NCBI GenBank assembly: GCA_964016885.1
Contig: OZ024742.1
Location: 89,838,001-89,902,000 of the forward strand
DNA: 64,000 nt
Direction: 5' to 3'
DNA from: Eledone cirrhosa
Taxonomy: Eukaryota
In this document: piece after piece, positions 985 through 63,926 of the stretch
Layout: each line of letters begins with the position of its first letter
Position numbering within the stretch: position 1 is the stretch's first letter
Notes under the pieces: generated by a model
Databases searched by the model: none
What the model saw: the letters and a program-made list of their open reading frames with translations, nothing else
What the model was told of the DNA's origin: nothing
Translations under genes and position numbers: made by a program

Positions 985-2300
985 GTCCAGCACTTCTCCC
1001 TTTATTATAGTATAGATGTACTATTTAGAATAACCGAAAGATTCTCAGCTCTGGAGTTTAAGAATGATGTCATATTCCACGCTAGGAAGACTGCCTTGCT
1101 CTTTGAAAACTCCACTTGGTTAAAGAGAGCTCCAGACTCTCATTTCGACGTCAGTATGGGCTCGACTGACTCGGTCATGGTGACCGACCTTATAGGACTA
1201 TACATACTCCATAAACACATCGAAAAGTTTCGTGTGTTCGGCGGTGGTCTGTATCGAGATTACGGGCTTCTTACCCTCACAGGGTACAGCCCCAGTACAC
1301 GGACCGGGTCCGTAAACACCACATGAAATTATTCCGCGATTTGGGTTTCAAAATCAGCCTACAGTCGTCCCTTACCCGCATCAATTTTCTGGATGTTACA
1401 TACAACCTGGAGAATCATTTGTACTACCCACATAGGAAACCTAATGCGAATTTACACTCTATCCAGCAGAGTTCTAACCATCCAAGGGACATTACCAATA
1501 ACTTAGTAAAAAAATCTCGCCCCGCATACCTCGCTTGTCCGCAAGCGAGCAGATCTTCAAAGAACACGTGCCATATTACAACTAGGCCTTCAAAAGAAGC
1601 GGATTCTTATTATCCAGGCCCTTCTAGCGGATCCAGCAGGTGACGCCGCCACTCACGCCAGGTAACGTGGTTCAACCCTCACCACTATGTCGAGACTGCA
1701 ACACCAATTGGCAAGATCTTCTTCAGACTTCTCGATAAACAATTCTCATCCAACACCGCTACCACAATATCATCAACAAAAACACTGTTAAACTTTCTTA
1801 CAGCACTACACCCAACTTTGCACAAAACATTTCTTCATCTAACAATAAAAAACTCCTCTCTAGCAGAATAAATAACAACGATATTAGAAGTGATCAAACT
1901 AGGAAGTGTAACTGTCCGGATCGTGCCCCCATCGTGCCCCCACAACAATAGATGCCGAGGACAAAACGTGGTCTACCAGTGCAATATGAGGATGGAAAAC
2001 TCCAACAGGCCTACATCGGATTAACCGCCTCCGATTTTAAGACCCGGTATTATTAACACCAACACCAACACACATCTAGAAACCCGGCCCGGCGATACGC
2101 GGCAGCATTTTCTGGCCATATATTGGGACCTCCAAGACAACAATATTACCTACCATCTAAGTTGGAACATACTTTCCAAGACAAAATCTTACTCGGGAGG
2201 ACGCCGTCCGTGTAATCTATGCTCGGAGAAAACAATCCAGATGCTGTTTGCAAAGGCCCGACTTTTAAACAAAAATGATGAACTCGTTCCCTCGTGTAAA
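985..2300 (+). mobile_element. Penelope-like retroelement relic (RT plus C-terminal GIY-YIG)
   Basis: FDVSMGSTDS..DLIGLYIL..GLYRDYGL (GLYRDDGL-type RT), INFLDVT..YPHRKPN, SSNHP, WFNP, then CNCP..NVVYQC..YIGLT; several frameshifts. Confidence 0.85.
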
Positions 2301-2676
2301 TACAGAATACATAGGACATATCGTATCTTCAAACCCTCTCACGACCCAGGTGGGTAGACCTCGGTTGTATCTCCTTCCTAATTACAAAGTAAGTATGAAT
2401 AAATATATATACGAAACCATGTTAGAGGTAACTAAATATGTTCACTTTTCTCCTAGTTTATTTTACACCTAATTCTGTTTAGTTGACTGTATATCTGGTC
2501 GATTTATACACGCTGTCGAAATACTCGATAAATACTCCGTCACAACCGCCGCGAAGGGCTGCTTTCGGTTATTTGTCGGAGATTTCTTCATAGAAGCCTT
2601 TATTCGTATAGCTTGGTCTAATCGATTTTTTATACGGTTAATTATGCTAATAGGGAGACGAAACGGTATATATTTC

Positions 2677-13699: not shown

Positions 13700-14645
13700 G
13701 TGTGTTATAAAGATGTTGGCCAAATTAGAATCAATCTCTCGGCTATCATGGTGTCTGCTCAGCCTAGGTTGGTCCCTATGGATTGAGGGGAGTTCCTAAC
13801 CTATGGTGTTGTTACTGCCCATATAGCTTGAGGGAGGTCTGGCCGAGAGGTCTCTAGATGTTCTGGAGATTCCCTATAGTTTGAGGGCAGTTCACATCTT
13901 ATTGTGTTGCTACTGTCCATATATCTTGAGGAAGGTCTCGACCCTGAGGTGTCTGCATGTCCCGAAGAAGTCGGTTCTGAGGTTTATCAGGCCGCTTCCA
14001 CCTCTTAGTATCTCGAGGGTCTCGTTCAGACATAGTTTGCATATGCAAGATCCGCTTTATCGGGTGGTACTTTCCTGATTATGGACCAGGACAGAGAGTA
14101 CGGGGTCCTGTCCAGATTAAGCTTCCAGATCAGGTCGGAGAGAGCCGTACTTTTCCTTTTGGCCTCCTTATTGAAGGAATGGCGATGGTTAAACCAGCGG
14201 TCTTTAAAGCTCGTTGATGTGGCTCCTATGTAGAGGTGTTCGAAGTTGGGGGTTTTAACCCTACAACCGTATACTAGGTCCTTCTTAAGGCATTCATTAC
14301 CAAGGAGGCATGATTCGGGGTTTCTGCAGTTGCAGAGGGTAGTCGATCTCTGCGTGCCTAGATTGGGGTTCCGTTAGGTGTTACATGGTGGTCTTCCCCC
14401 AGGCACGGTGGGGGTTCCCCGAGTTTGTTTGGGTTTCTACGGTGGGCACTGGGGTCCCCCTTTCTCTCCTTTCACATGGTTCTGCTTAGTGCTTGTATTG
14501 CCATCTTTTGGTTGTGTGTGGATTTTAAGCCTACTCCTGTTGATGCTAGCTATGTGTTCGGCCAGATTTCTCGTGGTGGAACACGAGAGCTTCACAGTGT
14601 GTCTGTTGAAGATCTTGTGGTATCTATGGTCCCTCGGGAAGCATT
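13700..14645 (-). mobile_element. Penelope-like element 3' part (GIY-YIG endonuclease)
   Basis: Minus strand reads FPRDHRYHKIFNRHTVKLS, CNCRNPESC..CLKKDLVYGC..YIGATSTSFKDRWFNHRHSF. Confidence 0.85.
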
Positions 14646-15651
14646 TATAACACACACACACATTTTATTTGATTATCCTATTTCGTTTTATTCTTTTACC
14701 ATCTTGTTCCTCCTACCACTTTATCCAACATATTTCTGACCTTGAGATTGGTTATAGTACACACACATTTTATCATATTTTATTTGAATCATCATTTTTA
14801 TTTTTCACTTTTCATTTTCATTTTTCATTTTCCATTTTCATTTTTCATTACTTTTTCCTTTTTCATTACTTTTTCATTAATTTTTCATTTATTCTCTATT
14901 TATTATTTATTTTCTGTTTTCTTCATTTTATTGCCTTCTATTTCTTCATATACGTGGCAGAACCCCACCACCACCACCACCATCACCACGGGAGATAGTG
15001 GCAGGAGGGATGAAGAAACACACACACAGATACTTCTAAATTGTCAGCAGCAGCAAGACATAAGCTGACCACAACACCAACAACACTACCAAAATAAGGG
15101 TAGAGGTCAGATGTACTTAACAATAGCAAACACAAACACTACAGGGAGCCTCACCACAGAAACAATTTCTATAGACTTTGGACTGAGGAATGCTCTCAAA
15201 ACTGACCAATGGAAAGAGTGACCTTACAAATCTTTATAACATTGAGATGGGTATAACACACACACATTTTATTCGATTATTTTATTTTATTTTGTTCCTT
15301 TACCATCTTATTCCTTCTACCACTTTATCATTTTTTTTTAGCTGACTCCAACAACAACACCACTACCAACATAAGAATAGAGGTCAGATGTATCTAACAA
15401 TAACAAGAACAACAACTACAGATTGGCTTGCCTCAGAACGAATTTCTATAGACTTTTGACTGAGGAATGTTCTAACAACTGACCAATGAGAAGAGAAGAG
15501 GCCCTTTGACGCTGAAATTCGTTTGTTTAAATTCATATGATTCCAGTTCCTCAGTGAAATAACAACCCAACCAGGAACTGGGCATATCAGAGTATTGACA
15601 AAGTTATACACCTCAACAACATGTGTACTCGTCTCTACCACACTAATTCGG

Positions 15652-24565: not shown

Positions 24566-26377
24566 TTATCTAAAATGTCTTGCACAGAGTCGGCAACCAA
24601 AACATTCACTGGGAATAGTCGGCTGTGGTTGGAGTTCTTGTACTCTTGCATGTCGCTTGAGCCCTCCTGCTGATTTACATTCTCTACCACATGTTTGGCA
24701 AGCATGATGAGTAGCATCTCCAACAGCAGCCTGGTAGTCAACCACTGGTCTTACTTTATGACTGCGAAGATGACTTTCGAGTCCAGCTTTGCTTAGGCAG
24801 AGTCTCGCACAGACGCTGCATGTCAAAACCATAGGAGGACCCTCGCCGTCTGGAAGTGCAACAGCAATGCCCTTCCTCACATCCCGCTTTACTTTCTCGT
24901 ATGCGATTCGAGATGTCTCAAAGGCAACTTTTCCCTCATATACAGTCTTTCTCCATTTATTACGATCAGCAGCAATATTTTCCCATGTATCAGCAGAGAT
25001 GTTAGCGTCTTTCAGAGAAGCTTTCAAGGAATCCTTATACCTCTTTTTTTGTTTATGTGGCGGTCGTTTTCCGTTAACTAACTCTCCATAAAAGAGTTGT
25101 TTTGGTATTCTAGAATCCTTCATCCTGGTAAGGTGACCACTCCAACGGAGTCGTTGCTTAAGCACAAGAGCTTCTATACTGTCACACATAGAGCTTTCCA
25201 AAATCTCGACATCACTGATGTGGTCCCTCCAGTGAACGCCATGGATCCGTCTGAGACACATCTGATGGAAACGCTCCAATTGCTTAAGGTGGTGTCGATA
25301 TGTGACACAGGTCTCGCAGGCATAAAGAAGACAAGAGAGCACACATGCCCTGTACACCTTTACCTTTGTCCTCCTGCATATGTCTCGCCGACTCCAGAGT
25401 CGCCTTTCTAGCTTTCCGAAAGCATCACTTGCTTTCCTAATCCTAAGTGAAATTTCACTGTCAAGGTTGCTGTATCGATTGACACTGCTTCCCAGGTAGA
25501 CAAACTGATCAACCATTCCAAGTCGTTTGCCATACACATAGATGTTTGGTTCAGTGTACTGCTTACCAGGGGCAGGTTGGTACATGACGACGGTTTTCTT
25601 GAGACTGACAGTCAATCCTAGGGCAGTGCAAGCGTCAGAAAATGCATTCAAAATGTGCTGCATATCACTCTCTGTGTGCGCTACAAGATCGCAATCATCT
25701 GCATACAAGAGGTCTCTTATGATTGATGTAAATACTTTTGTCTTCGCAGCAAAGCGCCTGATGTTAAATATGCTGCCTGAGGTTCGATATCGGATGTAAA
25801 CACCATGCTCGCAATTCCTGAATGCAATACAGAAAACCATTGCAAAGTATATGGCAAACAGGATCGGTGCTGGAATATCTCCCTGTTTCACTCCATTTTT
25901 TACTGAGATAGGCTTCGACATGTTACCTCCGACATTAACCCAAGCCTTCATGTCGTCATGGAAAGACCTAACTAAAGCAATGAACTTATCAGGGCAACCA
26001 AGTTTATGGAGAACCTTCCATAATGCATCTCTGTTAACAGTATCGAAAGCTTTTGTCAGATCGACAAAAACCTGATACAGATCCAAGCCTTGTTCCATGC
26101 ACTTCTCCTTGAGCTGTCTAGCTGAGAAGATCATATCAGTAGTGCCGCGTCCAGCACGAAAACCAGATTGACTTTCAGGAAGAACACAATCTGCAATGTG
26201 TGTCAGCAGACGGTCCAGAAGCACCCTACATAAAACTTTCCCTACGACAGAAAGTAATGATATACCTCTGTAGTTCCCACAATCATTCCTGTTACCCTTT
26301 CCCTTGTACAAGACCACCATTACTGCATCTCTCCAGTCCTCAGGTACAGATTCATTAGCCCATATCCTGCCAAACAA
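24566..26377 (-). pseudogene. RTE reverse transcriptase plus zinc-finger ORF segment (603 aa)
   Basis: Long ORF with all RT motifs and CSVC..HLRSH, CQTC..H fingers; separated from the APE segment by a stop near 26414. Confidence 0.9.
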
Positions 26378-26413
26378 AGAGTGAAGATGTTGCAGGAGTC
26401 TCTCACCACCATA

Positions 26414-27637
26414 TTATAGGAGCTCAGCATGTATGCCATCCATACCTGGAGATCTTCCACTGTTCAGCTTCGAAATAGCCACTGCAACCTCCACAAGCGT
26501 CAGAGGTTCTGCGAGAGCTACTTTCACAGGACTTTCTGGAATGAGATTGAGGAAATCTTCACTGACGACAGACGGCTGATTCAAAAGATCATCAAAGTGC
26601 TCTCGCCACCTTCGTAGAATTCCTTGTGAGTCACGAAGAAGTTCTTTGCCATCCTTGCTGCGAAGCGGTGTCACCAGAGAAGAAGACGGTCCATAAACCT
26701 CACGCAAGAGACTGTACAACAGCTTTATGTTATTGGAATCTGACGCAGTTTGTATCTCACCAGCCTTCTCACTCCACCACTGATCCTTCATCTGAGAAAG
26801 ACTCCGCCTAACACATGATTTTATATCCCTAAGTTCCTCATGCAACGTATTCCTCTCCTGTGGTTTTGCCGTCAAGTAGCGTGACAGAGCACGCCTCTTA
26901 TCAGCCAACAATTCTTCTATATGTACATCATTCTCATTAAACCAGTCCTGATGTTTTCTCTGCACCAATCCCAGAACACGCCTGCCTACATCATAAACCG
27001 ACTTTTTAAGGGTCGGCCAATCCTCACCAAGATCTGCAGCCTGCATCTCTTCTTCCAATGTCCTCTTCACATTTTTATCCTTAAGACGAACAGCATTCAA
27101 TCTTTTGGGCAGGGCAACACCAGGAGCCCGGATTTTACGTTTAGTGATTAGTTTCACTTTTGCGCGTACCAGGCGGTGGTCAGTCCAGTACTCAGCTCTA
27201 CGAAGAGCACGAACACACTGCACATCCTGTCTGTCACGCATCCTGACTAGGACGTAGTCCAAAAGATGCCATTCCTTAGATGCAGGATGCATCCATGTGG
27301 TCTTGAATTTGTTCTTTTGTTGGAACATGGTGTTGGTAACACACAGATCCAGCTCCTCACACATCTGCAGCAGGAGCATACCATTGTTGTTACACTTTCC
27401 CACCCCATGCCTTCCGATTACATTCCATGTGTTAAAATCCCTACCCACTCTAGCATTAAAGTCACCAAGCACGATGACTTTGTCTGCCTGAGGGATATTT
27501 CTTAAAACACATTTCAAGGCATGGTAAAAGGACACTTTTTCTTCATCGACAGAATTCATAGTTGGAGCGTACACACTCACCAGGGTAGCATATCTTCCTT
27601 TGTCCAGCGGAACTCTCATGGACATAAAGACGCTCAC
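26414..27637 (-). pseudogene. RTE APE endonuclease/linker ORF segment
   Basis: APE motifs and SPGMDGIHAELL; the N-terminal part continues with frameshifts to about 27930. Confidence 0.9.
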
Positions 27638-28617
27638 TAATCCCTACTGGGAATTCTTCTAATTTATTCACAAGTACAGTCTTAACAGCAAATCCTACCC
27701 CAGCTTCTCTTCTGGTTCCTTCATCTCTTCCTTTCCAGAAGAATGTATATTCTCCACAAAATTCTGTAAGATGACCATCCCCAGCTAACCTCGGCTCAGA
27801 TAAAGCCGCGATGTCAAGATCGTAACGTCGAAGCTACTTTGCAACAAGAGCAGTCCTTCGTTAAGGACGCTCCAAGGAATCCCTGTCAAGCAGCGTCCGT
27901 ACGTTCCAGCAGCCAAGACTAAATGCCTTGTTTGGCTCTATTACAATGGCATGATGACGAGCGGGCCCAGGATGTGATAACCTGGAGCCCCTGCCCTTAT
28001 TGCCAATTATCTCTTTTATATTGTTCTGGAACATCATTGAATTGGAAAAAAAAAAAATGTAATAATAATAGTAATAATAATAATAATAATAATAGTACAC
28101 TATTAATAGTTATTAATGCACTCGTGCAATGCCTGTGCGTGACGAATATTTTTAAAGTGAGGAAAGACTGTGCACTGAGCCAATCCCACTCTCTGAGCGA
28201 GAGTAGCTATAACCCGAAAAGAAGAAAAGAACAACATCATCGGTAACTACTGAGCCGCAGGTTTTATGTCGGAGTTAACCCAGTTTCCTGAGATGCCTTC
28301 TCCTAGAAGAATGCCCTGACAAGGGCATTCTCCTAGAAGAATGCTCTGACAAGGGCTAGTGGTTCTTCACTGCCAGTGGTTTAACTGCGCGATCGGGCAT
28401 CCAGCCCGATTATTTCTGTCCCCGCACAAAAAAATAGAAAAAAATAAAAATCACTTATTGACACTTATACGTACGACATACACACACGCGCATACATATG
28501 CGCGCACACACACGCATACATACGCGCGCACACAGCAACACTCATACATACAAACAAACACACACACGCTACTCACTTACACACACACACACATATATAT
28601 ATACATACATACATACA

Positions 28618-30879: not shown

Positions 30880-32520
30880 AAGTGTTTAGACGGGGTCGGT
30901 ATTTGTTAATAAAGTGAGATTCCTTGCTGATGCGCTGGGTGTGGGTGGCATTATCTTTAAATTTGTAGAGGGGAAAGATTCTAAAGTTGGGATGATTTTA
31001 GGCGGCACAGGTATCAATGTGTTCACTTAATGGTATTTTTCTGTATTCCCGTATTTTAATTTGGGATCTATGGACAGTCATGCGTTGGCGGAGGCTGTTT
31101 TTGGTCTGGCCTATGTATTGTTCTCAACAACCTGAGCAAGTTAATACATACATTAGATTTTCTGATGCGCATGTGAAATTGTGTTTTACTATAAAATGTT
31201 GTCCTTCTTTGAAATAGAATTCCGAACACTGTATTAGGTTGATGCGTATGCCACAGTTGGGTCTATCACATTTTCTTACTGTGGGTTTCGTTGTTGTAGC
31301 TGGCAGTACTTTGGCATGTGTTAGGATGTTTTTCATTGACTTAGATTGTCTTTTGCTCTTTATGATATCGTGTGTTCGAAGGATTTGGTTCAATCTATGG
31401 TCCTTTGTTAACACAGGGATGTTCTGGAGGATGGTGTCAAAGGCCTCAATGTTGAGGGGTTGTGTGTGGAGATGTATGGAACAACCAGCTTTTAGTTTCA
31501 GTCGATTTACTTTAGGGTGTCTAAGGTTCTGGGTACTGAGTTTTAGGGCACGTTGGATTCCATTGTCAATTAGTGATGCAGGGTAATCCCTACCTATGAG
31601 TGTGTCCTTTAATTCTTGTAGCCGTAAGTAATAGGTGTTTTTATTGGAGACTATAGTAGAGATTCTCTTGGCTAAGTTGTAGGGAATATTAATTTTAACG
31701 AGTCTAGGGTGGCAAGAGTTGAAAGGAAGATATTGCTTGGAGTCTGTGGGCTTGTAGTATAAGTCTATTTCTATATTTTGTTATGAATCTTAATGAGGAT
31801 GTCGAGGAAGGGCAGTTGTTGATGGCTGTATTCCATCGTAAAGTTAATATTCGTGTTGAGCCCATTTATAAGGGTGTGAAATTCTTTAAGTTTCTCGAAG
31901 TTTTCGTGCGACAGGATGAAGCAGTCATCTAGGTATCGCTTCCAGTTCTTTTCTATGTGTAAGTAGAGAGTGTTTCCAAATTTGTTTAGTACTTTAGTGT
32001 AGTGGGTGATTTCCAACTATCCCATGACTAGGTTGGCATAAGTGGGGGCTGTTTTCGTTCCCATGGCGGTCCCAGATTCCTGCCTGTAGGATTTGTTATT
32101 GAAAACGAAGTAATTGTTATCCAAGATAAATTTGAGTCCTTCTATCACGAATTCTTTTTTGATGCGTTGTTGGAGTTCGTTGTGGTAATTATCCTGCCAG
32201 AATTGGAAAGCTTATATTCCTAGGGTGTGGGGGATGTTGGAGTGTAGGTTGTCTACATCGAACGTCACTAGTAGGGTTTGTTCAGAAAGGGGCATAATAG
32301 GGAGGTGATTGAGCATATCTAGGTCGTCCCTTATATCGCTTTTGATGTGTTTGAGAAAAGGTTTGAGAAGGGCATCAATGAAGTTTCTAAGGCGGTGGGT
32401 TTCGCAAGCGGGGCCTGCTATTATAGGTCTTAATTTGAGATCATTGGGTGAGGGGACATTGATGAGTATGTCTGTGGCTTCCTTGCATGCCTTACTTATT
32501 AATATATGTATTAACTTGCT
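30880..32520 (-). mobile_element. Neptune-like Penelope element (RT plus GIY-YIG), disrupted; 3' non-coding region extends to about 29650
   Basis: RPIIAGP, TFDVDNL, GTAMGTKTAPTYANL, WKRYLDDCF, LPFLDI, YYKPTD..SCHP, FTCASENLMYVLTC..YIGQT. Confidence 0.9.
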
Positions 32521-35549: not shown

Positions 35550-37995
<2,446 letters not shown>

Positions 37996-38529: not shown

Positions 38530-38575
<46 letters not shown>

Positions 38576-38578
<3 letters not shown>

Positions 38579-39652
38579 TTAAAACAATGAAATAAAAAAT
38601 CATGTTATTATAGATATACATCACTGCTTTACGAGCGTTTCTAGATGGTCATAATACATTGTATCTATACTTATACACAGTTATTGATCTATGTAAGTTT
38701 ACAAACTATCAGATAGAGAGAATATTTACTTACATGCATATCACCAGCTGTTTTCAAAAGCAATAATAATTTTATTCAATAATAATTTTACTCAGAATTA
38801 GTATTATGTCCATATTTGGAGGTAGTTAAAGAACTAACGAATCAAATTGTTTTTTTCATATGGTGTTAAGACGAAAAGTAATACACTTTAGTTGAGGTCA
38901 TGACCCTTTGAAAGAAGTGGTTGAAAGGTGTTAGTAGAGATGGCATAAAAATCTATTAGAAAGGAAGTGGATTGTCAAACTGATAGTTGAATGTATCTTG
39001 TATAGTGAATTTAAAAGGAATGTCAAAATAATTGGTGATTAGTGTTGAATTGAGTTTTAAGGTGAATATAAATATATTTTGACATTCCTTTTAAATTCAC
39101 TATACAAGATACATTCAACTGTCAGTTTGACAATCCCCTTCCTTCCTAATAGATTTTTATGCCATTTCTACTAACACCTTTCAACCATTCCTTTCAAAGT
39201 GTCATGAACGCAACTAAAGTGTATTACTTTTCATCTTAACACCATATGAAAAAAACAATTTGATTCGTTAGTTCTTCAACTACCTCCAAATATGGACATG
39301 ATACTAATTGTGAGTAAAATTAATATTGAATAAAATTATTATGCTTTTGAAAACAGCTGGTGATATGCATGTAAGTAAATATTCTCTCTATCTGATAGTT
39401 TGTAAACTTACATAGATCAATAACTGAGTATAGATACAATGTATTATCACCATCTAGAAACGATCGTAAAGCAGTGAAGTATATCTCTAATGAGTTCATT
39501 TTTTATTTCATTGTTTTAACTTATATCATGACTCTGTTTTCCTTTTAATGTGTTATTGTTTTCTGCGATTTATCTTAACCTACAACATTTTCAACACATG
39601 GATTACATTGAGTTCTTCATACATAATAGACCCCAGAACTTACAGTAGATAC

Positions 39653-39660
<8 letters not shown>
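38576..39660. mobile_element. Non-coding palindromic element (arms about 450 bp, spacer about 45 bp) between (TA)n tracts
   Basis: 38576-39030 is the reverse complement of 39075-39522; a miniature copy lies at 48576-48757. Confidence 0.85.
39342..39473 (+). ncRNA. Candidate UUGAAAA hammerhead with a long stem II insertion (mirror copy 38625-38762, minus strand)
   Basis: tgctt-TTGAAAA-c agctggtgatatgcat...atgtattatcaccatct a-GAAAC-gatc-GTA-aagca; the closing pair of stem II is a C-A mismatch. Confidence 0.5.
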
Positions 39661-39734
<74 letters not shown>

Positions 39735-39782
39735 ATGAAATGACATGAGGCTGGATTTGTGTAAATCCTTGAAAGGTTTATT

Positions 39783-39840
39783 ATACTATGATAATTTCAA
39801 TGACCGGGTTCCGTATGAATCCGGTGATATCATCAGGTAT
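39783..39840 (-). ncRNA. Hammerhead ribozyme motif (retrozyme terminal repeat)
   Basis: Reverse complement of the 44603 motif, with one stem III mismatch. Confidence 0.7.
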
Positions 39841-41885
39841 TCGAAATATAAAACGTGAATGTAATAGATGAAATCCATGGGGCTCAAAATCGAGGACCTG
39901 AGGGCGATCGCTATCCTGTACCTTCTACCTTGGCCGGTCGCCCTCGAATGACGTTGCTAAAGCTTACAGTGTGCTACTACCGGTCAGATAAAGGAAAACA
40001 GAAAGGGATGGGAACATAAGTTAGCGTTAATCTCATGCCACAAGACAAAAGAAAGAAAGAAAGGAGGGAGATAGAAGAAGGGGGAAGGAAGAAGAAGAGA
40101 AGCCAGGGTTAATGTCAGCTATAAGAAGAAAGACAGAAAGAAGAGTAGGAAAGGTCGGTATTACAGTTAGGCCAGAATTGTCGCGAAGAAATTGTTTTTT
40201 TATTCTACGGGACGCGTATCTAAACAACTACTAGCGGTCAGATATAGGCAAACAAAAAGGGGGAAGGAAGATAAGTCTGTGGGAGGAAGACAGAAAGAGG
40301 GGAGAAGAGAATGAAGAGAATGAAGAAGTAGAAAAGTAAGGGTTGGTGGCTACAAGAAGGAAGATAGAAAGCAAGAGGAAGAAAGGTCGATATTAATGTC
40401 AGACTACAGTCAGGCCAGGAGTGGCGCGAGAAAATTTTTACAGGGACCCGTATCTTAGCAGAGGTGAATATATTGGGGGTCAGTGTGTTATAATGTGTGA
40501 GCAGAATATTGGAACGTTACGGTTTTGTTTAGACTTATAGGATGAAGTTAAAAATTAATAATTAATATTTAATATTAAAGAAATTAGAAAATTTAAAGTT
40601 AAGCAGTTTAACATTTTAAGGTTGATATATCTAATAGTTCTGATTTGATCTGTAATTTAAAGGTACTATGTGGCGGTTAAAACACCGGCCGCGCTCCGGG
40701 CCCCCGGGGCGAATTAAACCACTCCGAGTAGTTTCATTTACCGAAAGAAGGGGAAATTTATTTTCCCAAGCACTCAAGGTAGGCCCATGCACCAGGGGGC
40801 TGGTCGCGCCGCCATTCAAACCCACCCAACAGTCCGACAGAAAGTTGGAACTTTAAAATATTGTTTAAATTTATAGGATGAAGTTGAAAAGATTTATAAT
40901 TAATATTTAATATTAAAGAAATTAGAAAATTTAAAGTTAAACAGTTTAACATGTTAAGGTTGATATATCTAATAGTTCTGATTTGATCTGTAATTTATAG
41001 GTACTATGTGGCGGTTAAAACACCGGCCGCGCTCCGTGCCCCGGGGGCGAATTAAGCCACTCCGAGTAGTTTCATTTACCGAAAGAAGGGGAAATTTATA
41101 TTTCCAAGCACTCCAGGTAGGCCCATGCGCCAGGGGGCTGGTTGCGCCGCCATCAAAACCCGCCCAGCAGTCCGACTGAAAGTTGGAACTCTAAAATCTT
41201 GCTTAAATTTATAGGATGAAGTTGAAAGAATTTAGAATAAGATTATAAAATTAAAGAGTAAGAAGATTGAGTATTGAACAAACAGAAAATTGAAAATTAA
41301 ACATTTAAAAAAACTTCTATGAGGTTTTGGGTTGCGGGGTTTAATTAAAGAGAGTCTTTTATGAAAAAACGCTAATTGTATTATGTAGATCTATAATTTA
41401 TCCTAGTGGGATGTAGAGTACGGGATATAGTCGTGTAATATTTATTTTTGTTCTCAGGGGGAGACATTCTAGTGTCGTGTGCTAATGGGTACAAGTGAGC
41501 AAAAGTCCCAATAGGAGGAGTAGAAATACATGGATACATAGAAGTGGAATACGTGGAAGAGCACATTGATAAAGCAAAGGTATAAATATATAAACATATC
41601 AATATATAGATATAAATATGTAAATAAAGCAATAAGAGTGGTGTTGGAGTAAGATGGAGAAATCAAGACATAGGAGAAGTACAATATAGTTCAGGTTGCA
41701 GTATTTACCACTTGACAGAGCTGGTCTATTCCGTATTGTCAATCGTAATGTAATAATATAGAGAGTACTCAACGTAAAGCAATTCAACCGTCTTTGTTTT
41801 TGTAGTTGGTGGTGCTATTACGGAGTTAAATATTATAATGAAATGACAGGAGGCTGGATTTGTGTAAATCCTTCAAAGGTTTATT

Positions 41886-41943
41886 ATACTATGATCCTTT
41901 CAATGACCGGATTCCGTATGAATCCGGTGATATCATCAGGTAT
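41886..41943 (-). ncRNA. Hammerhead ribozyme motif (retrozyme terminal repeat)
   Basis: Minus strand: atac-CTGATGA-tatcaccggattc atacg gaatccggtcatt-GAAA-ggatca-TA-gtat. Confidence 0.7.
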
Positions 41944-42269
41944 TGGAAATATAATACGTGAATGTAATAGATAAAATCCATGGGCTGAAAATCGAGGACC
42001 CGAGGGCGATCGCTATCCTGTACCTTCTACCTTAGCCGGTCGCCCTCGAGTGAAGTGGCCAAAGCTTACAGTGTGCTACTACCAGTCAGATAAAGGAAAA
42101 CAGAAAGGGATGGGAACATAACATGACCGGTAGTAGCACACTGTAAGCTTTGGCCACGTCACTCGAGGGCGACCGGCTAAGGTAGAAGGTACATGATAGC
42201 GATCGGCCTCGGGTCCTCGATTTTCAGCCCCATGGATTTCATCTATTACATTCACGTATTATATTTCGA

Positions 42270-42327
42270 ATACCTGATGATATCACCGGATTCATACGGA
42301 ACCCGGTCATTGAAATGATTATAGTAT
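42270..42327 (+). ncRNA. Hammerhead ribozyme motif (retrozyme terminal repeat)
   Basis: atac-CTGATGA-tatcaccgg..ccggtcatt-GAAA-tgatta-TA-gtat. Confidence 0.75.
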
Positions 42328-43019
42328 AATAAACCTTTCAAGGATTTACACAAATCCAGCCTCCTGTCATTTCATTATAATATTTAACTCCGTAATAGCA
42401 CCACCAACTACAAAAACAAAGACGGTTGAACTGCTTTACGTTGAGTACTCTCTATATTATTACATTACGATTGACAATACGGAATAGACCAGCTCTGTCA
42501 AGTGAAACTGCAAACTGAACTATATTGTACTTCTCCTATGTCTTGATTTCTCCAACTTACTCCAACACCACTCTTATTGCTTTATTTACATATTTATATC
42601 TATATATTGATATGTTTATATATTTATACCTTTGCTTTATCAATGTGCTCTTCCACGTATTCCACTTCTATGTATCCATGTATTTCTACTCCTCCTATTG
42701 GGACTTTTGCTCACTTGTACCCATTAGCACACGACACTAGAATGTCTCCCCCTGAGAACAAAAATAAATATTACACGACTATATCTCGTACTCTACATCC
42801 CACTAGGATAAATTATAGATCTACATAATACAATTAGCGTTTTTTCATAAAAGACTCTCTTTAATTAAACCCCGCAACCCAAAACCTCATAGAAGTTTTT
42901 TTAAATGTTTAATTTTCATTTTTCTGTTTGTTCAATTCTCAATCTTCTTACTCTTTAATTTTATAATGTTATTCTGAATTCTTTCAACTTCATCCTATAA
43001 ATTTAAGTAATATTTTAGA

Positions 43020-43790
43020 GTTCCAACTTTCTGTCGGACTGCTGGGTGGGTTTTGATGGCGGCGCAACCAGTCCCTGGCGCATGGGCCTACCTGGATTGC
43101 TTGGAAAAATAAATTTCCCCTTGTTTCGGTAAATGAAACTACCCGGAGTGGCTTAATTCGACCCGGGGGCCCGGAGCGCGGCCGGTGTTTTAACCGCCAC
43201 ATTGTACCTTTAAATTACAGATCAAATCAGAACTATTAGATATATCAACCTTAAAATGTTAAACTTTCTGTCGGACTGCTGGGTGGGTTTTGATGGCGGC
43301 GCAACCAGTCCCTGGCGCATGGGCCTACCTGGATTGCTTGGAAAAATAAATTTCCCCTTGTTTCGGTAAATGAAACTACCCGGAGTGGCTTAATTCGACC
43401 CGGGGGCCCGGAGCGCGGCCGGTGTTTTAACCGCCACATTGTACCTTTAAATTACAGATCAAATCAGAACTATTAGATATATCAACCTTAAAATGTTAAA
43501 CTGTTTAACTTTAAATTTTCTAATTTCTTTAATATTAAATATTAATTATTAATTTTTTCTACTTCATCCTATAAATTTAAACAATATTTTAAAGTTCCAA
43601 CTTTCTGTCGGACTGTTGGGTGGGTTTAATGGCGGCGCGATCAGCCCCCTGACGCATGGGCCTACCTTGAGTGCTTGGAAAAATAAATTTCCCCTTCTTT
43701 CGGTAAATGAAACTACTCGGAGTGGTTTAATTCGCCCGGGGGGCCCGGAGCGGCCGGTGTCTTAACCGCCACATAGTACCTTTAAATTAC
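43020..43790 (+). repeat. Three tandem GC-rich modules of about 190 nt (two in the mirror arm, 40660-41190)
   Basis: Units start at about 43025, 43263 and 43598; core gcttggaaaaataaatttccccttstttcggtaaatgaaactac. Confidence 0.9.
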
Positions 43791-44602
43791 AGATCAAATC
43801 AGAACTATTAGATATATCAACCTTAAAATGTTAAACACTGTTTAACTTTAAATTTTCTAATTTCTTTAATATTAAATATTAATTATTAATTTTTTCAACC
43901 TCATCCTATAAGTCTAAACAAAAACGTAACGTTCCAATATTCTGATCACACATTATAACACACTGACCCCCAATATATTCACCTCTGCTAAGATACGGGT
44001 CCCTGTGAAAATTTTCTCGCGCCACTCCTTGCCTGACTGTAGTCTGACATTAATATTGACCTTTCTTCCTCTTTCTTTCTATCTTCCTTCTTGTAGCCAC
44101 GAAACCTTACTTTTCTACTTCTTCATTCTCTTCCTTCTCTCCTCCCCTCTTTCTGTCTTCCTCCCGCAGACTTATCTTCCTTCCCCCTTTTTGTTTGCCT
44201 ATATCTGACCGGTAGTAGTTGTTTAGATACGGGTCCCGTAGAATAAAAAAAAAATTTCTTCGCGACAATCCTGGCCTGACTGTAATACCGACCTTTCCTC
44301 CTCTTTCTTTCTGTCTTTCTTCTTATAGCTGACTTTAACCCTGGCTTCTCTTCTTCTTCCTTCCCCCTTCTTCTCTCTCCCTCCTTTCTTTCTTTTGTCT
44401 TGTGGCATGAGATTAACGCTAACTTATGTTCCCATCCCTTTCTGTTTTCCTCTATCTGACCGGTAGTAGCACACTGTAAGCTTTAGCCACATCACTCGAG
44501 GGCGACCGGATAAGGTAGAAGGTAGAGGATAGCGATCGCCCTCGGGTGCTCGATTTTCAGCCCCATGGATTTTATCTATTACATTCACGTATTATATTTC
44601 GA

Positions 44603-44660
44603 ATACCTGATGATATCACCGGATTCATACGGAACCCGGTCATTGAAATGATCATAGTAT
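44603..44660 (+). ncRNA. Hammerhead ribozyme motif (retrozyme terminal repeat)
   Basis: atac-CTGATGA-tatcaccgg attc atacg gaac ccggtcatt-GAAA-tgatca-TA-gtat; palindromic stem III; U-U at the base of stem II. Confidence 0.8.
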
Positions 44661-45970
44661 AATAAACCTTTCAAGGATTTACACAAATCCAGCCTCCTGT
44701 CATTTCATTATAATATTTGCTCCGTAATAGCACCACCAACTACAAAAACAAAAACGGTTGAACTGCTTTACGTTGAGTACTCTCCATATTATTACATTAC
44801 GATTGACCATACGGAATAGACCAGCTCTATCAAGTGGTGAACCTCAAACCTGAATATATATATATATATTATTCAATTTAGGAAAGTTTGTTGATCATTT
44901 AATCCGCTGACGTTTTTTGTAAACGGACATAAAGCACTCTATAAAATATCATTTTCGTTTATTCTAACTTTATTTGATTTTGTTTTTTTTATTTTCTAAT
45001 TTAATTTAATTGTTTGATAATATAGTTAATATTACAATTGATGTAGAGAATATAAAACACATACAAATGCTCAGATAGATGAGAACCGAACTCACCGAAA
45101 CTGGAAACTAAAGGAACTAGAATTTATGCTCAGTGCATGGAATTGAGCTAATGGCTCCCTTTCAAACAAGCTAATTAAGGATGCCCTACAAAGATGTGGC
45201 TTTCTGAGAACTTGGGCACAGCTACAACTGAAAAAGAACGAATTTATTCGTGCCTACTCGCTTGTTCTGCTACACGTGGATCAGTTGAGCCACATTTGGT
45301 CAGAGGACACAAAAGAAGAAGGGGAAGAAGTCGAAAACTAAGAAAAACAAAGTTCCTGGGAAAAAGAAGGCCCAGGTTCTCTGTGAATTCCACAAGAAAG
45401 TGACCTGTTAGCATAGGGCGTCTGGGACAAACTGCGGGTTTGCAAGTCGCACCCATCCTGCTTATGCCAACTACCCAAGCCAAAACCAACATGTGCAAAC
45501 AATACAGTGCACAGGGTCACTGTCCAGGATGTATGCTGAGGTTGTACGCACTCCCCTGATGACGAGAAGGAAGTATACAGAAGCAGTACAGAGTTTTAAC
45601 TGGATAAAAGGACTTTTTTTTTAATAACGGAAAATATAGTGAGACAGATGACTTAGCTTCGTCAACTACAAAGCCAAATTCAGTCACATCAACACTCGCG
45701 ACCACCACAAATAAAAGAGCTGGTGTGGCCGCTTCTGATACCCACGCAAGTGCCATATAAGCAGCCACCACTGATCCCTAAAATGTCACACTAGTGCTAC
45801 TAGTAAATGATCTTCTAACTGACACTCAGTATGGCTTTCGTCCGGGTAGAAATTGTATATGTTGGGAAGGTGATGTTTCAAATGAACACACACGCCGCTG
45901 TTGTTTTCACTTCAATTTATTACAAATTACCGGGTGGTTGGTTCAATAACCCGATGGTTGTTTATTTATC

Positions 45971-47292: not shown

Positions 47293-47378
<86 letters not shown>

Positions 47379-47606
47379 CATATATTCATATACATATAAT
47401 ATATATATTACATATATATTCATATATATATATCTTATATGCAATATGTTGAAAAGGTAACACACTAGAGAGAGAAAGTGTGCCATCAATAAAACAGGGA
47501 AAACCACCAGTGAATGGAATCTATAACTATGGAAGGCAGGGTATACACACAATAATTAAAAATATAAATTAAAATGTATATACGCACCTCTATAATTATA
47601 TAACAC

Positions 47607-47685
47607 ACGCGTACAAATCCAAAGAGATCTCTTTCGCCAGGAAGTTGTTGACTGAAATACAATAGCCTAGGGTTCATCAGCGCGT
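47607..47685 (-). ncRNA. Hammerhead ribozyme motif (mirror arm)
   Basis: Minus strand: acgcg-CTGATGA-accctag...ctggc-GAAA-gagatc..gattt-GTA-cgcgt. Confidence 0.65.
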
Positions 47686-48205
47686 ACTAGACTATACATT
47701 CCAGGCAACTCTAAGATAATCTAAAGCGACCGTCCAGCTACACGCGGCAGAGAGATGTCGCAGCTTGTTTAGGAAAGTGAAGCAGTGGTATCTGAGGGAC
47801 GAGCTGCTAGAAAGGGCAGCCCAAAAACCACTCAAAGAAGTGTGATGAACCAAACAGAGAGAGAGAAAGGAACGTTGTTATAAGGTGCGAAATATCACGA
47901 TAAATTAACGGAGCCATAGACTCTCCAGGATTCCTTTTCCTTTGAGCACATTATTGACAGGGAATAACAAGAGTCTATGGCTCCGTTAATTTATCGTGAT
48001 ATTTCGCTCCTTATAACAGTCTTTCCTCTCTCTTTGTTTGGTTGAGCACACTTCTTTGAGTGACTTTTGGGCTGCCCTTTCTAGCAGCTCGTCCCTCATA
48101 TACTACTGGTTCACTGCCCTAAACACTCTGTGACATCTCTCTGCCGCGTGTAGCTGGACGGTCACTTTAGATTCTCTTAGAATTGTCTGGAATGTATAGT
48201 CTAGT

Positions 48206-48284
48206 ATGCGCTGATGAACGCTAGGCTATTCCATTTCAGTCAACAACTTACTGGCGAAACAGATCTCTTTGGATTTGTCCGCGT
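48206..48284 (+). ncRNA. Type I hammerhead ribozyme with a full-length stem III
   Basis: atgcg-CTGATGA-ac gctag...ctggc-GAAAC-agatc tctttg gattt-GTC-cgcgt. Confidence 0.8.
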
Positions 48285-48520
48285 GTGTTATATAGTTATA
48301 GAGGTGCGTATCTACATTTTAATTTATATTTTTAATTATTGTGTGTATACCCTGCCTTCCATAGAGTATAGATTCGATTCACTGGTGGTTTTCCCTGTTT
48401 TATTGATGGCACACTTTCTCTCTCTAGTGTGTTACCTTTTCAACATATTGCATATAAGATATATATATATGAATATATATGTAATATATATATTATATGA
48501 ATATGAATATATGTATTATG

Positions 48521-48575
<55 letters not shown>

Positions 48576-48578
<3 letters not shown>

Positions 48579-48751
48579 TTAAAACAATCAATTGATTTTT
48601 TATTTCATTGTTTTAACTTATATCATGACTCTGTTTTCCCTTTAATGTTTTATGTTTTCCGGGATTTATCTTAACCTACAACATTTTGAACATATGGATT
48701 ACATCGAGTTCTTCATGCAGAATAGACCCCACAAGTTACTCTGGATACCTC

Positions 48752-48757
<6 letters not shown>
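48576..48757. mobile_element. Miniature copy of the 38576-39660 family with a 13-bp inverted arm, between (TA)n tracts
   Basis: aagttaaaacaat...attgttttaactt atatcatgactctg...gatacctctgtgt(ATAT). Confidence 0.8.
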
Positions 48758-48821
<64 letters not shown>

Positions 48822-57382: not shown

Positions 57383-60300
57383 TCTATATATATATAAATC
57401 TGAGGATGTGTGTGAAAAGGTTTGTAACGGATTCACGTCCACAACTTCCGACGGATTCTATTCAAAGTCAGGACAATTATTGCTTTTGGTCAGGAAAAGG
57501 TCATGAAGCAAAAGGAAATTCAAATCCATCAACAATAAGGGCAAAAATCGATCATGATCATTCCCCCTCGCTATAATTTAACTGTTTTACTCTCTCTGTC
57601 GCTCTTCACTCCCTAAATGACAACACTGCAGAGAGAGAAACAATATGTATGATCAAATGGAGCGTTTCGTATATTCCCTCTCTCTATAATTTAACTGCTT
57701 TACTCTCTCTGTCGCTCTTTACTCCCTATATGACAACACTGCGGTGGAGCATTCCGTATTGAGCGTTCCGTATTGACATACGGCTTATATGGTGCATTAT
57801 ATAAATCGAAATGTAACCCATGAACTTTTTCCTGGGCAAAATTATTCGAACAGACATGACCTCATTGCCAGAGTGTTCAGACTGAAACTGGCTAAACTCA
57901 TTGCTTTTATCAAAAAGGGTCAGGTACTTGGGGCTGTAAAATGTGACATGTTCACCGTCGAATGGCAAAAACGAGGGCTTCCGCATGCTTACATTTTGAT
58001 TTGGTTAGCTGATAAAATCAAAACAAATACCATAGACAGCTGAAATCCCTAACCCAGCAACTGACCAGGAATTACATAATATCAGCAAAGCTAACATGGT
58101 CCGTGTGCCTCGGGTCCTACTGAGCATCACACGTGTCTGAAAGAGGGGTCGTGCAGTAAAGGATACCCCAAAAAATGTGTTGACCAGACTCAAACTGGTG
58201 GCGACGGGTACCCCCTGTACAGGCCCGAGACGGCCCGTGAACGGTGGCTTCACCACAACAGTAAAGGCAGGTCAAGTCGACAATAGATAGGTGGTCCCTT
58301 ACTGCCCGCTTCTCTTGAAGATGTTCAATGCCCACATCAACGTTGAGACTTGCAACTCCGTCAAGTCGATAAAATACATATGCAAATATGTAAATAAGGG
58401 CTCTGATGCCGCAATGTTCGCATTTCAAGCTGAAAATAGCAGGGATGAGATTACAGAATACCTGGCGGGGCGGTACATCAGTAGCAATGAAGCTTTTTGG
58501 CGCCTATTTGGTTTACCCCTACACCAATGTCACCCCGCCATCGTACAGCTTGCGGTACATTTGGAAAATGGGCAAAGGGTTTACTTTACGGACCAAACCG
58601 CCGCCAAGTTGGCCGCCGACCGAAAGAGACCATTCTGATGGGTTTCTTCAAACTTTGCCAGTTCGATGCATTTGCGCAAACAATTGTGTACCCCCAGGTT
58701 CTCTCCTACTTTATATGGCCGAAAAACACTTGAGTGCGAAGAAAGTCAGGTCAGGCTGTTGAAAGACATCCTGGTGTAAAATTTGACATCTGTCTTGGAA
58801 GGGTTTACACTGTGTCCCCAAGTCAGCATGAGTGCTTTCATCTCCGCCTTCTTGTGCATGAAATTGTAGGCCCACAAAGTTTTCAGGACCTCAAAACTGT
58901 TGATGAAGAAATATGTGATACGTACCGGGAAGCCTGCTTTAAACGTGGTCTCTTGGAAGGTGATTCGCAATGGGATTCCACTTTAGCATAGGGTGCTTTG
59001 TTGAAATCAACTAAAAGTCTACGAGAACTCTTTGCCATTTTGCTTCAAAAGTGTGAATTGGGTGATCCTATATCTTTCTGGGTCAAGTACAGAGACTTGA
59101 TGTCTGAGGACTTCCTGCGCCTGGCTCATCTGCAGTATCCTTCAGTGGAAGTTGGTTGCAGCGACATTATCTACAACAGGGCACTCATTGATATCGAGGA
59201 CGCCCTCCTCGACATTGTAGGGAACGAATTGGCGACGTATGGTTTGCTGTCAACCATCAGAGAGGACGCTAACACGTTGGCCCCGGATTTGTTGCGAGAA
59301 ACAGCATATGACATCGATTCTCTTTCCCAATACTTAGAGGAAAATGAGCCTAAACTTGTGACGGACCAAAGGTTGGCTTATTTAACTATCATTGACGCGG
59401 TTCAAAATGAGACTGGGGGTATTTACTATCTCGATGCTCCTGGGGGTAATGGAAAAATCTTGGGAACAAAATTGATTCTCGCTAAGATTCGTCAGGAGAA
59501 AAAAATTGCGTTGGCCGTTGCATCGTCCTGGATCGCTTCTACTTTGCTGCCGGGAGGCAGGACAGCACACTCAACCTTAAACTCCCCTTGGATTTAGTAA
59601 AAACTGAGACACCAACATACAATATCAGCAAGAGTTCACACGAAGCTCTGGTTCTCAAAAAATGTTACCTCATTGTTTGGGATGAGTGCACAATGGCACA
59701 CAAGGGTTCGCTTGAGGCATTGGACAGGACTCTGAAAGACATTAGGGATTCTACGGCTCCTATGGGTGGCGTAACCCTTCTGCTATCAGTGGATTTTCGG
59801 CAAACGCTGCCTGTCATCCCCAAAGGGACAAGAACTGATGAAGTGCGTGACTGCCTTAAGTTGTCCATGTTTGGCCCCAGGTGAAGAGTTTGTAGCTGAG
59901 CACAAATGTGAGTGCTCATTTGCATGGGGACAACATGTCTGCAGCATTTTCTAACATTTTAACATTTGGTGTGGGCAATGTCCCTGCGGATGACAAGGGC
60001 GGCATAGCAATCGACTCTCTGTGCAACATTGTGAGCATCCCTTCTGACCTTTGGGAAGCAGTTTTTCCTAATGTCTTTAATAACTTTAAAAAATTCGATT
60101 GGCTCAGCGAAAGAGCCATCCTTGCTCCGAAAAATCCCATGGTTAATTTTATTAACGAGCAGCTGATTAAGAAGATTCCCGGTAAAGAGCACATCTTCAA
60201 ATCTATCGACCTGACGTCAGACCCCGACGATATCGTTAATTATCCGGTTGAGTTATTAAATTCCCTTGAACCCCCAGAGCTCCCACCTCACATTCTTAAG

Positions 60301-61025
60301 CTTAGGGTTGGTTGTCCCATTATGCTAATAAAGAACATGCGTCCACCAAAGCAGTGCAACGGTACTCGCATGGTCGTCAAGTCACTGACGCCCCAATTGG
60401 TTGAGGCCACCATCGTAACGGGGTGCGAGAGAGGGCAGAATGTTCTCATTCCAATGATGAACCTTTTCCCCTCGGCGTCAGATATCGCGTTCTATTTCCG
60501 GCGAATCCAATTCCCGGTGAGACCATGTTTTGCCAAGACACAAGGGCAAACATTGTCGGTGGCGGGCATCCATTTGGGAGTACCATGCTTCGCCCATGGC
60601 CAAATTTATGTTGCCTGTTCCCGCGTAGGGAGCAGGAATGGACATTTTGCTTACACTCCTCAAGGTATGACACCCAATATCGTCTACAAATAGGTGCTAT
60701 AGATGTTGATGCAGGTGTTGGAGGTGTTGGAGCAATGCCGTCTAGAAAACTATTTCCTGGTAGGGTCACGCTTGGCGGACAGATCTGACACCCAGCGGTA
60801 TCAGGGCCACCATCTTGCAACTTTGGTCTGCTAAATTCGGTATTGGAAGATTATTAACCCATCATTGATTGTCCAAAATGCTAATTGGTTCGTAACTTTT
60901 AATAACCGGTTCAACTGCTTTATGTACTTAATTTATAAGCTTATTTGCTTTCAAGCCACGTTTACCTGTATGTAACTTTTCATAGAAAATGAACAAACCT
61001 GAACAACGCCGGGCTAAACTGCTAC
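57383..61025 (+). mobile_element. Decayed, internally deleted Helitron (Rep HUH nuclease plus Pif1-like helicase)
   Basis: 5' TC; VEWQKRGLPHAYILIWL, HINVE..SIKYICKYVNKGSD, DAPGGNGK, WDECTM, KTQGQTL, HGQIYVACSRV; 3' cctgaacaacgccggg..CTAC; many stops and frameshifts. Confidence 0.95.
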
Positions 61026-61881: not shown

Positions 61882-61938
<57 letters not shown>

Positions 61939-61982
61939 AATGACAGGAGGCTGGGCTGGTGTAATTCCTTAAAAGGTTTATT

Positions 61983-62040
61983 ATACTATGATCATTTCAA
62001 TGACCGGTTTCAGTACGAATCCGGTGATATCATCAGGTAA
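61983..62040 (-). ncRNA. Hammerhead ribozyme motif
   Basis: Minus strand: tac-CTGATGA-tatcaccgg..ccggtcatt-GAAA-tgatca-TA-gta. Confidence 0.75.
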
Positions 62041-63635
62041 TCGAAATATAACAAAGGAATATAATAGACAAAATCCATGGGGCTGAAAATATTTTCAGGG
62101 CTTTTGGGATTCACTTTGGATATTCAGACTCGAACATACACTAGGTATCACCTGATACCATTCCTACTCTTCCATCCTGTATATCTATATGTATAACATT
62201 GCATTCTCCAACCGTGCTATATATTGCCCATTTACTGCACCTTGATCTGTATTTTATTTCTTCTGTATTGTGATTTCTTCTATGTTCTTATATACTTCCT
62301 TTTTACTCCCTACATCACCACCCTAGGTATGACTGTATTTTGTATTTTACTTATGGTATTACTTATGCATTTATTTACTCCCTTTACTCTCATTATATAC
62401 GTATCCTTGTACTCATTAGCACACGACCCTATAATATTGCTCTCTGTACCCTTATATCTGTCTATCTTTATTTACTCCCCCTACCCACCCAGGTATCATA
62501 CTACATATAACCGGACTAACTATAGTCTATTTGCACATTTCATCAGATTTTATCACTTTCAACTTCACATCACGGGTGTGAATAACTAATAATCGTTTGG
62601 TACACGCGATGATCCGACTGATGTGGCGGCTTTTCCGACAGCACACCAGTCGCTTGGGTCGATCAGCCTTCCTTGAGTGCTTGGAAAAATAAATTTCCCC
62701 TTCTTTCGGTAAACGAAAATACTCGGAACGGCTGCTTCGCCCTGGGGCCCTGTCGGACTTGGAACCCGCCTCGACACCGGTTATTGACTGCCAAACAGTA
62801 CCTTTAAATTCTAGGCTTAATCATAACTTTTAATTTTATCTGGCCTCCTTCTACTAGCACTTAACTAAATCCCCCACCAGTGTGAATCACTAGTAGTCGT
62901 TTGTTATATACGATGTCCGGCGGACGGTGGCGGACTTCCCGCTGGCACACCCGACGCTTAAGACAGTTAACATTCCTGGGGTGCGCGGAAAAATAAATGT
63001 CCATTTCTTTCGCTATACAATAATACTCGGAACGGCTAACACGCCGTTGGGCCCCGGGCTGGTCGGGGGTACGCTACGTCGCTAAGCATGGGTTTAATCT
63101 TTACTCTGTATTTTACCCTGAAACTTTATCGTGACTATCTATAATACACTTAAACTTTTTCATAACAGCCTCCTTCTGTAAATTCTTTAACTAAATCTCA
63201 CAACTTCAAACTTAAACCTTATTTTTCTAATTTCATCTTAAATGTCATCTTCTAACTCTAAACATAAATTTAACGTTTCTAATTGTTAATCGAAATTTCT
63301 GTCCATACATTATACCATGCAGACGCCCACTATATATTACTAAATATAGTATTGTTAAGATATATGTTCTTTGATAAAATATTTTTCGCGGCACTTCTAG
63401 CACGCATGACCAGCTTGATTGTGACCTGACTTCAACGCTGGCCTCTGTCTTTGAAGGGATAGTAGTATTACACTATAAACCTACGCCCCTTCACAAAATA
63501 GTCATATGTAGGCTTAATAATGACCACATGAGGGCGGCCGACTGGGGTAGAAGGTGATAAATGTTCGGTCGCCTTCATGTCCCTGATTTTCAGCCTCATG
63601 GATTTTGTCTATTATATTCCTCTGTTATATTTCGA

Positions 63636-63693
63636 TTAGCTGATGATGTCACCGGATTTATTCTGAACCCGGTCATTGAAATGATAATAGTAT
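63636..63693 (+). ncRNA. Hammerhead ribozyme motif (weakened stem I)
   Basis: CTGATGA-tgtcaccgg..ccggtcatt-GAAA-tgataa-TA-gtat. Confidence 0.6.
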
Positions 63694-63880
63694 AATAAAC
63701 CTTTTAATGAATTACACAAGTCCAGCCTCTGTAATTTTATAATAATTAACTCCGTACTCGCAACACCAACTACACAAACGAAGACGGGTGAGTTACATTA
63801 CGTTGAGTGCTCTCCATAATATTACATCGAGGTTGACGATACGGAATGACCAGTTCTATCCAGTGGTGAACCAACAAACC

Positions 63881-63926
<46 letters not shown>

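Follow-up and report, generated by a model that had tools for sequence, protein, structure and literature searches.

A long non-coding element of Eledone cirrhosa with Penelope-type ends, probably mobilised in trans by Hydra-clade Penelope-like elements

We analysed a 64,000-nt stretch of the Eledone cirrhosa genome (assembly GCA_964016885.1, contig OZ024742.1, positions 89,838,001 to 89,902,000), hereafter the window, in which a 5.1-kb palindrome with four hammerhead ribozyme (HHR) motifs had been predicted from the letters alone. Arm alignment and core positions agreed with that layout: a left (minus) and a right (plus) arm, ~95% complementary, lie head to head between (TA)n runs, with CUGAUGA cores at +42274, +44607, −41939 and −39836, i.e. 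spaced by 2333 nt in the right arm and 2103 nt in the left. The ~137 nt that end the right arm are missing from the left outer end. Insertions of this element end at either of two fixed points, T (window 44854) or N (window 39727), N lying about 137 nt earlier in the element. As had also been predicted, there is no credible open reading frame (ORF): a single stop-to-stop frame of at least 100 amino acids (aa) overlaps the element (119 aa, 44123-44482, minus), and the longest ATG frame of the right arm has 70 aa. The palindrome is, however, an insertion product of the usual Penelope-like element (PLE) kind (partial tandem, inverted copy, one-sided tail) and not the element itself, and its arms are 1.2 turns of a head-to-tail unit instead of the terminal repeat-internal region-terminal repeat order first proposed. 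We read the element as a 2-2.6 kb sequence that has no ORF and ends of the Penelope type, and whose reverse transcription is likely carried out in trans by a protein of a Hydra-clade PLE (probability roughly 0.8). The features of the locus are as follows.

39660-39734: (TA)n target, left side, overlapping the left end by microhomology
39727-42121, minus strand: left arm, a partial tandem, inverted and truncated at its 5' side, that stops at the inner fixed end (N) and has no tail
39783-39840, minus strand: HHR copy 1, with an intact core and stem I but a broken stem III palindrome (AUUAUCAU)
40525-41257, minus strand: two 338-bp GC modules of the left arm
41886-41943, minus strand: HHR copy 2, stem III palindrome broken (AGGAUCAU)
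42122-42123: inversion point, where the two 5'-truncated arms join
42124-44854, plus strand: right arm, a partial tandem that runs to the outer fixed end (T) and includes the tail
42270-42327, plus strand: HHR copy 3, type I, with stem I AUAC/GUAU, a 31-nt stem II and stem III AUGAUUAU
42387-42449, plus strand: motif past the N end, ACTCC ... GAGTACT, common to Hydra-clade PLEs
42500-42510, plus strand: junction left by a ~540-bp deletion, shared by the two arms, which removed the T end, the GCTCC..GAGCAC motif and the 5' part of the unit
43025-43498, plus strand: 237-bp exact duplication, known only from the window copy
43262-43921, plus strand: two 337-bp GC modules, with a ~55-nt core kept across subfamilies
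44008-44469, plus strand: two pyrimidine-rich modules, 70% alike
44603-44660, plus strand: HHR copy 4, the majority form of the family, with stem III AUGAUCAU and a cut predicted after 44656
44717-44854, plus strand: ~137-nt tail, from one fixed end to the other
44855-44870: (TA)n target, right side
61931-63885, plus strand: copy of a sister family, S, with a short inverted N arm and a long T arm, the same two end points, and HHRs at +63640 and −62036

The 230-nt difference in spacing between the arms had been ascribed to about one tandem GC module. It does fall within a 338-bp module, but only a 237-bp part of that module is duplicated (43025-43261 and 43262-43498, 100% identical). This duplication is absent from the paralogs L031 and L032, where the HHRs are 2100-2105 nt apart, and the 2333-nt spacing therefore reflects a recent local change or an assembly error and not a monomer length proper to the element. 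Compared with the units at L047, L065 and L067, that of the window is ~540 bp shorter at its 5' side and has one extra GC module; the window copy is an internally deleted variant of the family unit and, with the T motif lost at its inner junctions, is probably dead. Six segmental copies of the locus lie at contig positions 89.4-90.4 Mb (L031-L033, L201-L204); the palindrome is whole in two of them, one unit longer in one and collapsed in three, and none of the six offers an empty, pre-insertion site.

The window element belongs to a family, R, whose sister family S, represented in the window by the diverged relative already recognised at 61931-63885, is also non-coding. Both were searched for in the 3.0-Gb assembly, and about 130 of thousands of loci were sampled. 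We tallied the ends of 73 loci, three paralogs excluded: 36 showed at least two recognised outer ends, 32 showed one and 5 none. In 34 of the 36, one T and one N end stand on opposite strands. The first 40 loci had been picked with a T-end query, so that the informative part of this count is the other end being N. The same rule held in the nine two-armed loci among 20 solo HHR loci, one of the nine having an atypical inner end. R insertions thus display the traits of PLE insertions, namely pseudo-long terminal repeats (pseudo-LTRs) made of partial tandems, an inverted 5'-truncated copy on the 5' side, a one-sided tail (34/36) and (TA)n targets. Copies diverge within a locus by 2.6-2.9% (T-N, I-T) or 4.3-4.7% (I-N), compared with 5.6% between loci, and have 1.7-2.7 rare variants per kb in common within a locus against 0.12 per kb between loci (14-23 times more often). 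Because copies of one locus are closer to each other and rich in common rare variants, both arms derive from one source. None of the 68 5' truncation points within the terminal 540 nt lies within 3 nt of the HHR cut. Eleven of the 68 cluster at unit positions 1868-1878 (window about 44540-44550), on the 3' side of a GC-rich hairpin.

The family that had been inferred is dispersed in the genome: a 33-nt HHR word common to R and S has 4,065 exact matches genome-wide, and a control word has none. First-look candidates numbered 2128 for the 3' end of R versus 581 for its 5' start. R copies are 93-97% identical and mostly short 3' ends, and among the first 20 unpaired matches fetched, 17 mapped within 500 nt upstream of the cut. 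Full units are arranged head to tail, one to three per locus, and the 23 non-paralogous spacings range from 1979 to 2778, 13 of them within 2568-2689 (marker error about 45 nt). At 35 loci chosen by the first 306 bp of the unit, the sequence upstream was the element's own 3' end (29/35), an inversion (5/35, counting L140) or a deleted tail (1/35), and never an ORF (0/35). The longest ATG frames of six units have 70-96 aa, and tblastn of eight PLE proteins against these six units gave no match at E≤1. Exact matches to tandem junctions number 40 genome-wide, and 47 for the S subfamilies, whose junction loci had no frame above 112 aa within 1.5 kb in 12 of 12 cases. The S subfamilies are about 62-80% alike to R or S internally and 80-88% at the ends. 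A ~55-nt core of the GC module (GAGTRCT..GGAAA..TTTCC..ACTCGG) occurs one to three times per unit in subfamilies otherwise ~70% alike; we claim no structure for the module because compensatory change was seen in only 2 of 16 pairs. Examples of the core lie at window 43660-43745, 62666-62750 and 62960-63040, where words of the end motifs recur in reverse order. ORFs found beside copies were rejected as the element's own, being those of long interspersed nuclear elements (LINEs), Helitrons or neighbouring PLEs, or lacking a Pfam match; likewise L061 and L143 are not elements with a tail plus an ORF, a TA run parting the element from a Neptune-type PLE in each. The original prediction of a non-autonomous, ORF-less, unusually long and modular PLE relative is upheld. 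The element shows the PLE insertion structure and lacks the reverse transcriptase (RT) plus GIY-YIG ORF of an autonomous PLE; it is best filed as a long non-autonomous dependant of the Hydra clade, with Penelope-type ends and no ORF.

The HHRs consist of a stem I of AUAC/GUAU, the core CUGAUGA, an imperfect stem II of 31 nt, GAA, a stem III of 8 nt, and AUA as the cut site; cuts are predicted after 42323, 44656, 41890 and 39787. Core and stem I are intact in all four window copies, and stem III is fully palindromic only in the two of the right arm. The Rfam scan of the window returned no HHR at the gathering threshold; at E≤1, none of the 69 matches in four loci was an HHR (68 were microRNA models on TA/CA repeats and one a weak small nucleolar RNA), and a transfer RNA search found none. 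Minimum free energy (MFE) folds of the HHR monomer preferred other pairings and did not yield the hammerhead. Because both Rfam and the MFE folds were negative, the HHR call rests on the core sequence and on stem covariation between the families of this genome, in which stem I AUAC/GUAU is replaced by CUGC/GCAG or UUUAU/AUAAA and stem III is palindromic in each form (AUGAUCAU, AUAUAUAU, AUGCGCAU). A dimer of the family form is predicted at −9.2 kcal/mol, the left-arm variants being weaker, and core, stem I and the stem III palindrome are all kept in 91 of the 122 copies spanning the motif. The base of stem II has U on both sides, as in 14 of 26 published Hydra HHR rows. By its sequence and stem covariation, the ribozyme is of the Hydra form: sense, type I and near the 3' end.

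A further link to the Hydra clade lies in the sequences past the two ends. Past the N end stands ACTCC..GAGT[AG]CT, and past the T end GCTCC..GAGC[AG]C, a pattern common to R, S and the families Y, Z and A introduced below, with A-U as the first pair after N and G-C after T. The N motif was present in 156 of 199 distinct HHR-plus-tail copies and in none of 199 upstream controls; of the 30 distinct R/S junctions, 23 contained the T motif. A structural HHR scan uncovered Y, a related young family with an 892-aa ORF upstream of its HHR; the ORF contains RWK, DKT, CxCx5C, CxxC and CxH motifs, by which, and not by a tree, it is placed in the Hydra clade, and its named homologs are octopod only, at about 40% identity. 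Z and A, both Hydra-type, carry an R-like HHR form 1.0-1.7 kb downstream of the endonuclease. HHR type, N motif and T motif are thus common to all five families. In addition, at L056 an R arm ending at T is followed by a 65-nt inverted R piece and a truncated Y copy ending at the N site of Y, with no (TA)n between, which suggests a single event that would have used both R and Y RNAs.

Several observations weigh against this link and the mechanism built on it. The autonomous PLE with the same terminal repeat that had been envisaged did not turn up, no ORF-bearing PLE with the R terminal sequence being present among 30 GIY-YIG loci and 20 solo HHR loci. The latter also yielded no further chimera; L056 is a single locus that could be a deletion fusing two neighbours, and the abutment of L066 on a Neptune-type PLE and of L063 on a Z-like end is similar and ambiguous. 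The 199 HHR-plus-tail copies are not independent and come mostly from two or three families. Finally, the motif stems are 4-5 bp long, and of eight junctions folded, six gave the T stem a pairing probability above 0.5 and three the N stem.

In the mechanism we favour, a Hydra RT/GIY-YIG protein would bind a longer-than-unit transcript at ACUC..GAGU past N and GCUC..GAGC past T, both predicted to form short stems. The (TA)n site would be nicked on both strands, one strand priming at T and the other at N inside uncut RNA, and joining of the two cDNAs at their truncated ends would leave a palindrome that bears its tail at a single side. The HHR may act as a dimer via its palindromic stem III and is probably dispensable for making the template. 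A wider proposal, which we hold only tentatively and at somewhat under even odds, is that a duplicated RNA signal (RCUC..GAGY-R-CU) of Hydra-clade PLEs sets two internal RT start sites, one per target strand and possibly on two RNAs, and that non-coding parasites of 2-2.6 kb, which multiplied to thousands of copies, retained three parts (this signal, the hammerhead and an internal motif that is repeated), the remainder of their sequence having diverged to about 70%.

The nature of the template separates this mechanism from the cycle originally proposed, in which HHR cleavage yields linear or circular monomers. In its full form, that of a giant non-LTR retrozyme, dimeric HHRs would cut tandem transcripts, the 2-2.6 kb monomer would be circularised and rolling reverse transcription would generate partial tandems, a model put forward for PLEs in PMC4209133, which also reports low activity of PLE HHRs. 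The head-to-tail closure of the unit in 29/35 loci, the intact HHR in 91/122 copies and five arms that stop exactly at the unit start are consistent with such a cycle. So is the symmetry of the three-copy loci, as predicted by a monomeric circle, with inner and outer repeats equally alike in 8 of 9 (discordant sites 17:20:22); however, a young linear tandem master explains these loci equally well. The ninth, L067, is asymmetric (11:2:1), and in the window three variants and the deletion junction are common to both inner repeats, as holds for each of the three full paralogs, whereas the outer T end keeps the deleted bases; neither difference could arise from a monomeric circle. Since its inner repeats agree against the outer T end, the window insertion speaks for a template that exceeded one unit and held two repeats unlike each other, and later homogenisation of the inner repeats is argued against because the repeats are ~2.6% apart. 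Moreover, no truncation point coincides with the cut (0/68), folding of the unit is no stronger than that of shuffled sequences (z −0.36; one unit, 12 shuffles), described animal retrozymes measure 51-972 bp, and uncut RNA was the template in the sole PLE tested in vitro (PMC11167929). We therefore consider a retrozyme cycle unlikely, with circles a possible template for copies other than that of the window.

The other alternatives are less probable still. Mobilisation by a Neptune-type or other PLE outside the Hydra clade would agree with the presence in this genome of Neptune-type PLEs that have long ORFs and lie between (TA)n runs, one of which directly adjoins L066, yet the HHR form and both end motifs of R match Hydra families, whereas the HHR of the C-rich Neptune is short and of another form, and its 3' end lacks the N motif; we regard this as improbable. 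The element could also be the 3' untranslated region (UTR) remnant of an autonomous PLE whose ORF-bearing master escaped a sample of about 130 among thousands of loci, the more so as Hydra PLEs of this genome have non-coding 3' regions of 1.0-1.7 kb that end in an R-type HHR. Against a remnant of this sort, which the original prediction had named as the outcome that would undo it, stand the absence of an ORF before the unit start in all 35 loci, each preceded by its own tail or an inversion, the 40 and 47 exact tandem-junction matches, the 12 of 12 S junction loci with no frame above 112 aa in 1.5 kb, and the empty tblastn search; it is accordingly very improbable. A DNA foldback transposon, or duplication of a hairpin after insertion, would account for the long inverted arms and for a locus that rearranges after insertion. 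We give it next to no credence: arms are unequal, 5' truncation points variable, end sites two and different, many copies are one-armed, and the T/N end rule refutes it.

There is precedent for non-autonomous PLEs, for HHRs in pseudo-LTRs, and for tails and inverted arms. According to PMC8557442 (Craig et al. 2021), PLEs insert in tandem and inverted form and bear a tail at just one end, of 30-40 bp as against ~137 nt in R; the paper names the choice of start site and the formation of such insertions as open. R resembles the Hydra-clade PLEs treated there in its (TA)n targets, its sense HHR near the 3' end with a U/U stem II base and its tandem and inverted insertions, and intact Hydra families of the same genome carry both end motifs; it differs in having no ORF, a 31-nt stem II and a perfect 8-nt palindrome as stem III, and the R HHR word is absent from that paper's supplement. 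In Poseidon PAc from Anolis (PMC11167929, Frangieh et al. 2024) two internal RT start sites downstream of the HHR bound the tail, targets are AT-rich and reads do not end at the HHR cut, all much as in R; PAc also goes on inserting when its HHR is mutated. The R sites, however, are separated by ~137 nt, a related motif follows each of them, and one site per strand is seen in genomic copies, whereas PAc showed no strand difference in vitro and has its sites within the ORF. Animal non-LTR retrozymes, all under 1 kb (PMC7229834, Cervera and de la Pena 2020; 10.64898/2026.07.22.740005, Li et al. 2026), are likewise non-coding, head-to-tail and PLE-derived, with a type I HHR per unit, but their units of 51-972 bp (survey period limit 1000) compare with 2.0-2.8 kb in R, which forms one to three units instead of long arrays and is not unusually self-paired. 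Non-autonomous Chlamys PLEs such as MRC1 (PMC8557442) are ORF-less, with pseudo-LTRs and 3' similarity to autonomous PLEs, as R is, yet they are green algal, of another clade and mostly without HHR. Plant LTR retrozymes have type III HHRs, true LTRs and a 4-bp target duplication, whereas R has a type I HHR, unequal ends and (TA)n flanks. In the available portions of the literature searched (including PMC13282606) we found no account of the R family, the end motifs, the one-end-per-strand rule or ORF-less families so long and numerous; repeat databases lay outside this search, and the family may be catalogued there.

The window holds further elements of these kinds. Y pieces, inverted to each other, lie at 13913-14646 (minus) and around an HHR at +15657. 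An HHR-bearing family at 47102 (plus) has a 46-nt stem II, a U/U base and a GAGTGCT tail motif, and another foldback forms a palindrome at about 47296-48576 with HHR-like cores at −47680 and +48211. Directly left of the main palindrome is a (TA)n-bounded foldback (38530-39660) whose end recurs at 48653-48818. Pieces at 30881-32505 (minus), 36183-37250 (plus), 1069-2324 (plus), 24566-27643 (minus) and 58992-60693 (plus) comprise a broken Neptune-type PLE, two other Hydra-type fragments, a LINE and Helitron helicase pieces. Genome-wide, Hydra-type proteins gave 58,906 and 44,622 first-look candidates, many copies being 95-99% identical with ORFs of 750-896 aa, and these sequences point to a very large and recent expansion of a clade otherwise described from few families.

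Together, these data indicate that a non-autonomous PLE can reach kilobases in length and high copy numbers, and that such elements would be missed by Rfam and by retrozyme surveys limited to 1 kb. An ORF-less family reveals by conservation which RNA signals matter, and the young intact Hydra ORFs of the same genome supply the protein for testing them, at a time when start-site choice in PLEs is only partly answered by PMC11167929. If two signals do set the start sites, the model would explain both the tail and the inverted arms of PLEs and would define a minimal trans-mobilisable cassette for (TA)n-targeted insertion; if, in addition, the HHRs cut, the family would produce retrozyme-like RNAs at least twice the described length.

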